Below are positions 45,450 through 49,800 of a stretch of DNA of 64,000 nt, piece after piece. The notes below the pieces were generated by a model, which was not told the DNA's origin, ran no database searches, and saw only the letters and a list, made by a program, of their open reading frames with translations. The stretch is from Podarcis gaigeae (taxonomy: Eukaryota), in NCBI GenBank assembly GCA_964106915.2, contig OZ066918.1; one strand, written 5' to 3'. A program made the translations under genes and the position numbers. How positions within the stretch are numbered: position 1 is the first letter of the stretch; every line of letters starts with the position of its first letter.

Positions 45450-46100
45450 CTCGCCCGTCCCCGGGGAACTTCTCCCCACCCCTCAGCGGCTCGCAAAGTC
45501 GTTATTTCTGAAGGGGGCGGAGCTGCCCGGGCTAAGCTTCCTCGGCCGCCCAGCGCCCCCTCGGGGCTTGGGCGTGGAGAGGTGATGGCCCACTCCCCTT
45601 TCGGATCTCCTGTCCGGGGGAAGACCGGGCCCCCTCCTCCCCTCCGCGGGCGGCAAGCAGAGCCCAGCCCTCCTGCCTCCCGACCGGCCGCCCCCTCCTC
45701 CTCCTCCTCCAGCCCCTCGCCTTGTTCGGCGCGGAGTGCAGATCGCGGCAGCAGGAGGCGAAGCCGAGAAGGCAGGGGAAGGGAGCTTCGCGCCCAGCCG
45801 CTCGCTCGCTCGCCTCTCTGCCCCAGCCGGCCCGCCGCCTTCTGCCTGCCTCCTCCTTCCTTCCTTCCCCCGGGGCGGCTGCAGAAGCAGCAGCAGCTGC
45901 ACCAAGGAGCGTTGCCAAGGATCCGCCGCTGTTGGGCACGAAGCGGGGGCCGAAGAGAACCGCGCAGCGGCGACTCGGGTGTAGGGACGAGGGAAAAGGA
46001 GGCAGGCAGGCATATAGACACACGAGCACGCGGGACACCGCGCCGGGGATCCGCACCGGGACTGCAAAACTTGATCCGCCTTTAGGAGGGAGAAGGGGGG
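45450..46100 (+). promoter_or_regulatory. CpG island promoter of SH3PXD2A
   Basis: Strongly GC/CpG-rich, with a GC box (GGGGGCGGAG near 45513) and CCT/GCTC runs, directly upstream of the SH3PXD2A start exon. Confidence 0.85.

Positions 46101-46277: not shown

Positions 46278-46281
<4 letters not shown>

Positions 46282-46330
<49 letters not shown>
46282..46330. repeat. (AT)24 microsatellite
   Basis: Perfect alternating AT run between the CpG island and the SH3PXD2A ATG. Confidence 0.98.
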
Positions 46331-46546: not shown

Positions 46547-46618
46547 ATGCTGTCCTACAGCGTGCTGGATGCTAATGTGGTGGACGTGGAAAAAAGGCGA
46601 AACCCATCCAAACATTAT
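46547..46618 (+). CDS. SH3PXD2A: SH3 and PX domain-containing protein 2A (TKS5), first coding exon
   Basis: MLSYSVLDANVVDVEKRRNPSKHY, the start of the PX domain; 72 nt; Kozak AAGATG; donor TAT|GTGAGT. Synteny with STN1 and SLK agrees. Exon 2 not found in the window. Confidence 0.95.
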
Positions 46619-46710
46619 GTGAGTACACAGATGGGGGCTGAATAATGCTTGCATGGGAGGGGGTGCCATTAATGTCCAATTGTGGCAAGGCTGCATGTCC
46701 TGGCAATGGG

Positions 46711-46811
46711 CAAAACAAAAAAAAATTCCTTCCAGTAGCACCTTAAAGACCAACTAAGTTAGTTCTTGGTATGAGCTTTCGTGTGCATGCACACTTCTTC
46801 AGATACACACT
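46711..46811 (-). mobile_element. Short Penelope-like element terminal fragment with 10-bp TSD
   Basis: TGGCAATGGG is duplicated at 46701-46710 and 46812-46821. The insert carries the reptile Penelope terminal pattern (gtagcaccttaaagaccaac...gagctttcg...cttcttcagat). Confidence 0.8.
46769..46806 (-). ncRNA. Minimal type I hammerhead ribozyme motif of a Penelope-like element
   Basis: Minus strand reads GUAU-CUGAAGA-A-GUGUG-CAUG-CACAC-GAAA-GC-UC-AUAC: complete core, stem I GUAU/AUAC, stem II GUGUG/CACAC, palindromic AGCU in place of stem III. Confidence 0.8.
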
Positions 46812-49800
46812 TGGCAATGGGTGTCATTCTTGAAGCATTTTACAAGGCTGGCTGTTTGGGTTTGCAAAGAGCCAGAGAAATGATTTGGGATAGGGTTTCT
46901 GAGTGTGTGCTGTGCCCCACTGATGAACTTTATGAAGCACCTTTACCACCAAGGAAGAAGGTGAGCATAGGGGTTTTTGCAAGCATTTCAGTTTGGTGCA
47001 ATCGTGTCTTTCGGGTGCAGTGTTGTGTAACATAGCCTATATAAGGAGGACACTGTTTGGAACAGGCTGCGCCTTCCCAGGTGGTCTGAAAAGCACACAG
47101 GATGAGTATATGGGTGTTGATTTGTTTTGTTTTTTAAAGAGCTCCTCTCCTTCAATTTAAAATCAGTTTTGCAGGCTGTTTTAAATAATCCTGCTGCAAA
47201 CAAAGTTCCTCTGCCACATCTTTGCTTGTTTTTGATGAGCATTGGTAGCATGCTAGGATTTGGGTGGAGTGTTTGGTGCAGGACAGACATGAACTAGACT
47301 AGATGATGCTTAACTCCTCTCCAGCCCTGAGTCTATAATGGCAGTCCCAGTTTATTCATGCACAAGAATGTTGCCCTCTGGTCAAATTGGCTGACCATTT
47401 TTTGCCCTTTCCGTGGAGCAGGAGGCACATGTGGTGTTATTTTGAGCCATCTGGGCTTGTCTGACCCAACTTATTATTTTGACCTGGATGCACATTTGGC
47501 AGGGGTGTCCCTCAGTTCCTCATAAACAATCAGTTCTGCTATTCTGGAAGACTGCTTACATTCTCCTGCCCCTGACCTGAGCCTTAGAGGGCTTTTGCAC
47601 ATTGGAGCAAAAGGTAGACTTGCACTTTTCTATCTTCCCATTAATGTAGGGACGTCCACATGATGCCCTCCCCATTGCCCTGAACCTTCCATCCTTTTAA
47701 TACAGGTGTTTTTTTTAAATCCTTGGAAAGTCTGAAATGATCAGGCTGGAGAAACACCTGCATGTAGCGGGGAGAGGTCCAGGAAAACATTGGGATGGGG
47801 GTGAAGTCTTGCGGGTTCACCTATGTTAATGGGGAGACTGGTAGGTGCAAATCCAAGCCCACAGAAAGACAGTGGTTAGGGCATTTCTTCCCAGAGCATT
47901 TTGGAATAGCTGCTTAAGGACCTTGAATTTGTCCTAGGTGGGTGTCCCATTTTCTCTGTTACGCTTTATTGGCAAAATTCGTTGCTTGACTTTCTCATTA
48001 GAGATCCAAGGCAGTGACCGTACATGAACCCTCGGTTTCTTCTCTTTAGCTGAGCCAGCTCAATCAATGTGCAGTGCTGGTTGTGCTCCTGGGCGGTGCA
48101 GGCCAGGACACGGACATAGTCACTGCAGGACAAACCTCAGTGAAAAGATCCGAAGAGGATGAAAATGTTAGTCACTACGACATGGGACTAACTGAGGGCC
48201 ATATATGCTTTCAGATCTATTGGCCCCAATATTTGAAAGTACCAAGGGTGGTAAATCTGTTATCCTTTCCTTGCCAGTAGGTAAGGACTATATATTTTAG
48301 GTTAATTCTCATAGGGTGATATTCTGCTAATCAGTGCAAGGATTTATGGGCAGTAGGACTTTCATGTTTTCCCAACCCTGTGCTCTCTCAACAGCCTCCC
48401 AAAATCTCCTCCAGAGGGTTGGGGGAACCCCTAGAACAGATTTAGGAGACATGCGGGGGGGGGGGGGGAATGCAAGCAGAAATAATTTCATGGATGAAAC
48501 AATTGCCTTAATGCCATGTTGCACTCCACCAATAATATTTTCATGGAACTCCAAACTCTGTTTTGGATGTGGGCGAAGTGTTTTGCTGGAGCTGCATACT
48601 ATTTTGCTGGTGTTCCATACTTACAATTTCCCACCAGCTTTGACTACTGAACACAAGCTGGTAACTGAGACCAGAGAATAGTTTTCCCCCTCCAACTGTT
48701 CACTGACAGGTATCAAGGGAATTTGTTTAATCCTACAGATTTCAACACTAAACTTTGTCATGTTGTCATCATCCGTTTTGAATAGAAGTGAAATAGTAGA
48801 TGAGGCAAGGAGTAATCACAGCCTTGGAGAACGACAAAAAGGCAGGAGTTCTTGCGTCAGCCCTCCTTACCAGTCCTCTAGACCTGACAGCCAAGTCATG
48901 CACAAGAGTGGATATAAAGAGCATTATTAGTATTGGCATCTTTCTCCATATTTCTGCCAAGGACCCTGTGGAAGTAGCCTATCAGATGTGCAGCTTGCTT
49001 TTTGTGAATTCAACCTTAAATGACATTATTTTTCACAAGGTTCAGTTTGCCAAGTTAACCAGGATCTACTTGTAATCTGGTTCATTTTAAAGCTCAGCTT
49101 TGCTCCGGACAGCAAAACGTATTGGGCTGGTATTACCACCAGTGTTTCAGCAGACAGTCTTAAATTGAAAACTGCTGGTGTAAGGGAAGGGCTTTTCTGA
49201 TTATTAGGCTAAAAATATATCTAGCCAAGCATTCTGCTTCACACATTGACTAACCAGAAAACCCACTAACCACACAGCCTGAAGGCCATAGCTGGCTCCT
49301 CCTATTGTGCTTACCCGGTAGACTGCCATTAAATTTGAAGGTTCTATTAGTCTTGGCAAATCGCTGCTGGTAGACTTATTCTCCGTTAATATAGCTGATC
49401 TCTCCTTAAAACAATTGAAGCCAGTGGCTATCACTTGTCTACTCTTTGCTCTAAGAACTAAAATGCATAACATATTCAGCAGTTATGATACAAGATGCAG
49501 TGCCAGCCATAGAAGTGAACGAGGACAAAGGGTGGTATTATGTCATACAGTTGTTCAGTTCTTTGGTAGTTTGTGCCATAGACAGCGAGTATTGTGGGTG
49601 ATATTCACATATCTCGGTGTAAGTATGAGACAGTTCTGTGTCACACTGGGTACTATCAGGTTGTGTTCTTATCTACACTTACCTGGAAGTAAGCATGTTA
49701 ATAGTCAGTTGGACTGACTTTTAAAATGTTTACAGTTTGAGATCCTTCAAGTTCAAAGCAAGTATTTTTCATGTGTAAAACAAGCAAACAACCCTCAGTT

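Follow-up and report, generated by a model that had tools for sequence, protein, structure and literature searches.

The 101-bp insert at 46711-46811 of the window, by which we mean the whole 64,000-nucleotide stretch of DNA analysed here, is a promoterless pseudo-LTR (pLTR) copy of a Penelope-like element. It was probably made by reverse transcription running off the 5' end of an element mRNA that was capped and uncut, and it is likely neutral for the host gene in which it lies. It is a further case of the Penelope-like copies that carry minimal hammerhead ribozymes (min-HHRs), and the locus is ordinary. The young family to which it belongs, however, supplies counts across the whole genome that are relevant to what Penelope hammerheads do, a role that has been called unclear (PMC8557442).

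The insert is enclosed by a perfect 10-bp direct repeat, with the left copy of the target-site duplication at 46701-46710 and the right copy at 46812-46821. It begins 92 nt downstream of the GT donor at 46619, which closes a plus-strand host coding exon of 24 codons (46547-46618) whose ATG is at 46547. By the likeness of its 24 amino acids, this is putatively the first coding exon of SH3PXD2A; searches with the 24-aa exon gave no hit in Pfam or PDB, and no PX-domain match near the window is found among the 60 matches listed. Read from the minus strand, and hence antisense to the host exon, the insert comprises a 5' junction (46807-46811), in which 46807-46808 match the element and 46809-46811 are 3 nt of filler, a 38-nt hammerhead (46769-46806), and element sequence 3' of the ribozyme (46711-46768) that terminates 3 nt short of the first ATG of the element's ORF. 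It is without promoter, coding sequence or tail, and of its 98 aligned nucleotides 97 are identical to the downstream pLTR of a complete element. An earlier sequence-only reading had described a 101-bp insert with a perfect 10-bp duplication about 90 bp past the exon 1 donor, of Penelope origin and bearing a ribozyme antisense to the host gene, and on all three points it is borne out.

The same reading had placed a minimal hammerhead on the minus strand, with all core nucleotides, one extra A and a cut between 46773 and 46772, and the sequence agrees. On that strand, the 5' arm of stem I (46806-46803) is followed by the CUGAAGA core (46802-46796), an unpaired, bulged A at 46795 between positions 9 and 10.1, and stem II with its loop (46794-46781), which is closed by the G10.1-C11.1 pair (G46794-C46781). 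Next come the GAAA core (46780-46777), a palindromic AGCU at positions 15.2-16.2 in place of stem III (46777-46774), C17 at 46773, where the cut is predicted (46773^46772), and the 3' arm of the 4-bp stem I (46772-46769). The core elements CUGANGA, GAAA and UH are thus all present, together with stems I and II. This motif is matched once in the window and in none of 100 shuffles, and it is the only family-like ribozyme there, a solo copy. The Infernal-type search that had been proposed as a check was, conversely, negative, as Rfam hammerhead models gave no hits at gathering score in the window, and the single hit near the insert at E≤10 was unrelated (E=5.4); such a miss would be expected for a motif that has no stem III. 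Folded alone, the insert gave no stability signal (z 0.33). As a separate observation, a G-to-A variant at 46773, which changes C17 to U on the ribozyme strand, accounts for about 5-10% of family depth in four sequencing runs and suggests a subfamily.

These features are those described for the min-HHRs of Penelope-like elements (PMC4209133), a class reported from reptiles among other hosts by Cervera and de la Pena (2014) in the same work. Common to both are the type I topology, the lack of a real stem III, the palindromic 15.2-16.2 segment, the 4-bp stem I, the unpaired base between 9 and 10.1, and the G10.1-C11.1 pair, as well as the location in pLTRs, the thousands of solo copies, and the close pairs on opposite strands. 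Every sequence feature of the class is found here, and the assignment of the ribozyme to it accordingly stands, the extra A being a described hallmark of the family (PMC4209133). Stem II differs in that it has 5 bp within a perfect 14-nt palindrome (46781-46794), compared with the 7-8 bp of Schistosoma, and the near identity of the copies resembles the recent invasion of D. virilis by Penelope (PMC4209133). Several inverted family copies pivot at this same palindrome.

The parent of the insert is represented by a complete element in the genome (locus L149), which has two pLTRs 3,010 nt apart with a 921-aa frame between them. The frame encodes a reverse transcriptase domain (RVT_1, PF00078, E 9.7e-12) followed by a GIY-YIG endonuclease domain (PF01541, E 8e-6), both above the Pfam cut-offs. 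A copy extending upstream likewise encodes a GIY-YIG domain, and its protein has matches of at least 95% at 112 scored places. A CX2-5CxxC linker, common to Neptune and Nematis (PMC8557442), is present between reverse transcriptase and endonuclease, and on this sequence feature the element would appear to be a Neptune or a Nematis. The ribozyme occurs in both pLTRs, sense to the element and wholly within the 5' UTR. A close counterpart is Poseidon of Anolis carolinensis, also a reptile EN+ element, in which the ribozyme lies close to where the ORF begins, the tail is optional so that two 3' ends occur, and uncut RNA serves as the template (Frangieh et al. 2024, PMC11167929). In the Anolis element, however, the ORF begins inside stem II and reverse transcription begins within the ORF (PMC11167929), whereas the element described here keeps its ribozyme wholly in the 5' UTR and carries the CX2-5CxxC linker (PMC8557442). 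Non-LTR retrozymes are also non-coding, hammerhead-bearing, pLTR-derived and dispersed as monomers (10.64898/2026.07.22.740005). Assignment of the insert to that class was considered and rejected, since retrozymes are defined by tandem units with at least two ribozymes, and the insert is solo and a direct piece of an autonomous element.

The exact 38-nt ribozyme has 9,021 matches in the genome, 4,512 forward and 4,509 reverse, with none for the reversed control, and 0.38 exact ribozymes would be expected per 64-kb window. Even the full 101 bases of the insert recur exactly at two further places. In a sample of 68 copies covering the ribozyme, the core is intact in 62 and the whole motif is exact in 49, and the intact core at this locus therefore needs no special explanation. 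The insert does not include the TATA region of the element. A role specific to this locus is thus unsupported, as the insert's motif is one of 9,021 exact copies, its intact core is the norm in the family, and the TATA region is missing.

The history of the insertion leads to a similar view. Both of its junctions are spanned by contigs of all four sequencing runs that were compared (two samples of organism A, one of B and one of C). No empty-site joint occurs in the contigs of these four runs, which reveal presence only. Among the runs listed as carrying the insertion, none is recorded as RNA, which has no bearing on expression. Being shared by three organism labels, the insertion is not entirely new. 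Over about 420 letters of right flank, 0-3 differences from the window are counted, in addition to small indels. Runs separated by only 1-3 letters over such a length are so close that a 38-mer can stay unchanged without selection. The motif is present at the locus under three close organism labels, and its 9,021 identical copies speak against deep locus-specific conservation. Two insertions are common to organisms B and C relative to A: one of 9 bp follows 46530, a short way upstream of the ATG, and one of 16 bp follows 46885.

The origin of the short copies can be read from their ends. At the 3' side, 77 of 132 copies end near the 3' end of the insert, 53 have a tail of about 35 nt, and two run into the ORF. 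Two classes of 3' end are to be expected from the two internal reverse-transcription starts of the Anolis element, where initiation at one or the other site sets whether the tail is present (PMC11167929). Of these two classes of 3' end, the one at 46711 is the proximal, and it likely marks a start of reverse transcription. Flanking direct repeats of 9-17 nt are found at 15 of 19 simple short copies, and an inverted fragment lies upstream in 61 of 100 copies by a crude motif scan; the insert has the target duplication only, without tail or inverted partner.

For the 5' ends, 100 unselected copies were collected by a downstream anchor, all within the initial 6.2 Mb of a single contig. The 30 loci initially picked by likeness to the query, a biased choice, are absent from both the 100-copy and the 132-copy sets. 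Within the sample, the ends of 43 copies fall inside 9 nt around the point where stem I begins (p 3e-18 against a uniform distribution). Two reservations apply to this count: copies with a T at one upstream position are dropped, so that short copies are under-represented, and an inverted partner accompanies 26 of the 43, whose rows are therefore not independent. The remaining ends comprise 22 in the 35 nt inside, three in the next 12 nt, and 32 that run on. Genome-wide, seven further upstream bases are kept in only 2,903 of the 9,021 exact ribozymes. The pile-up is not confined to one base and has peaks separated by 2 nt. It is preceded by a TATA box at a distance of 30-33 nt, and the insert's own 5' junction at 46807-46811 falls within it. 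Copies that end at the first base of stem I are preceded by G in 1,203 cases and by A or C in 653, a G share of 0.65 where 0.32 is expected. An untemplated G has been tied to copying of the mRNA cap in L1 (PMC9341517). Many 5' junctions, however, re-copy pieces of the element that end in G, and part of the G excess can come from such template jumps.

We infer from these observations that the pile-up, including the junction of the insert itself, is likely the transcription start of the element, and that the extra G would be a copied mRNA cap. The short copies are then likely run-off cDNAs from the capped, uncut 5' end of the element mRNA: the element's reverse transcriptase would start about 100 nt into this message and run off its 5' end, leaving a copy of about 101 bp. 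Retention of the ribozyme in nearly all short copies would likewise follow from its being the first 38 nt of the message, rather than from host selection. A promoter within the pLTR is already known (PMC2377424, PMC3846280, PMC6765202), and solo motifs have been ascribed to truncated elements, their length being left unexplained (PMC4209133). A literature search, largely of openly accessible papers, found no report of the start site combined with the extra G.

Two other origins would leave the insert an equally neutral passenger and account differently for the pile-up. Short copies might derive from a spliced message with its 3' splice site just before stem I, as in the Penelope of D. virilis, where an intron ends at the 5' end of helix I (PMC4209133). 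Indeed, a pyrimidine run ending in CAG lies directly above stem I and resembles a splice acceptor. Yet junction words of at least 7 nt from an element donor were found in none of 88 edge-ending copies, 40 of which are rows chosen by likeness to the query, and words of 5-6 nt gave single hits only. In addition, the extra G is also found on many copies whose end lies a single base within the putative acceptor, and a spliced origin is consequently improbable. Alternatively, the pile-up could mark a stall or template-switch hotspot of the reverse transcriptase on a longer RNA, a process to which the many junctions that re-copy ribozyme pieces and the frequent inverted upstream fragments would be well suited. 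A stall at a helix should nonetheless produce ends at the 3' base of that helix, yet few are seen there (the 22 of 100 spread over 35 nt), and 32 of 100 copies read straight through. As a stall would also leave the TATA spacing and the G excess unexplained, we consider it as improbable as splicing, and run-off from a capped 5' end is retained as the preferred origin.

Whether the ribozyme cuts is a separate matter, on which the copies themselves offer some evidence. Copies whose first base is precisely the predicted cut site number only 28, while two adjacent control positions give 20 and 18 (p 0.08; the third pattern is one base shorter at its 3' end), and 10,691 anchored copies are available for comparison. 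The rarity of these ends implies that templates are overwhelmingly uncut. By eye, host-like sequence lies upstream of about 10 of the 28 cut-site ends, compared with about 2 of 20 and about 5 of 18 at the controls, and a small class of copies from cleaved templates is possible. In the Anolis system, similarly, unprocessed RNA was the main template in vitro and cleavage was dispensable there (PMC11167929). A nearest-neighbour folding model, which ignores tertiary contacts and protein, gives stem I a pairing probability in context of at most 0.008 and stem II about 0.75-0.8. For two copies, it predicts -28 kcal/mol for a duplex of the stem II palindrome against -11 kcal/mol for the double hammerhead, so that in the model pairing between two RNAs through the 14-nt palindrome competes with the active dimer. 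In the parent element, a read-through RNA would carry two hammerheads at a spacing of 3,010 nt and so provide a natural dimer pair, which the lone copy does not have. Elsewhere in the genome, at L058:3800-4100, a partial tandem of two short copies lies about 190 nt apart, the first entering the start of the ORF, and this arrangement would constitute a natural cis dimer for cleavage.

The remaining explanation, advanced by the sequence-only reading, is that the insert regulates its host gene by cutting antisense RNA that runs toward exon 1 and the promoter, after pairing in trans with another copy. The core is intact and antisense to the exon, thousands of possible partner copies exist in the genome, the insertion is kept under three organism labels, and amniotes are known to have domesticated hammerheads in some introns (PMC6155905). 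The need of a lone copy for a partner, which that reading had anticipated, agrees with the published record, in which min-HHR monomers are inactive and dimers weak (PMC4209133). The same record weighs against regulation, as the Anolis ribozyme depends on the protein of its element for cleavage and RNA-seq did not reveal its cut ends (PMC11167929), and eight of nine Xenopus dimers were not cleaved (10.64898/2026.07.22.740005). Here, the predicted stem II duplex is favoured over the active dimer by about 17 kcal/mol and stem I is scarcely formed in the same model, intact cores are usual in the family, and the flanks are too similar for an unchanged 38-mer to require selection. The hammerheads of RECK, CTCL and DTNB are also of type I and lie in vertebrate introns, and are conserved across birds, mammals or reptiles (PMC6155905); unlike them, the insert carries a minimal motif that is antisense to the exon and comes from a young family in which the identical copies number more than 9,000. 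Regulation of the host gene by cleavage is therefore very improbable, and the base rates above make it likely that the insert is neutral for it.

For the element itself, a start of transcription at the pile-up would place the ribozyme at +1, where it would control capping and translation and not template release. A tentative extension, which we think rather less likely than not to be correct, is that the hammerhead's first bases are where the message begins, that cleavage removes a capped leader of about 35 nt as a self-decapping switch, and that only uncut, capped RNA is copied. If so, this switch would account for the many solo minimal hammerheads in animal genomes and would give the ribozyme a testable role.

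Some minor features of the locus may be added. Some 220 nt before the ATG, a long (TA)n run occupies 46281-46330. A GC- and CpG-rich segment at 45450-46060, upstream of the exon, is likely the host promoter region. On the plus strand, the insert contains a candidate cryptic splice acceptor (46786-46803), with its AG at 46801-46802, about 180 nt past the donor, and pyrimidines at 11 of the 15 preceding bases. Such an acceptor would be a more ordinary path to an effect on the host gene than cleavage.
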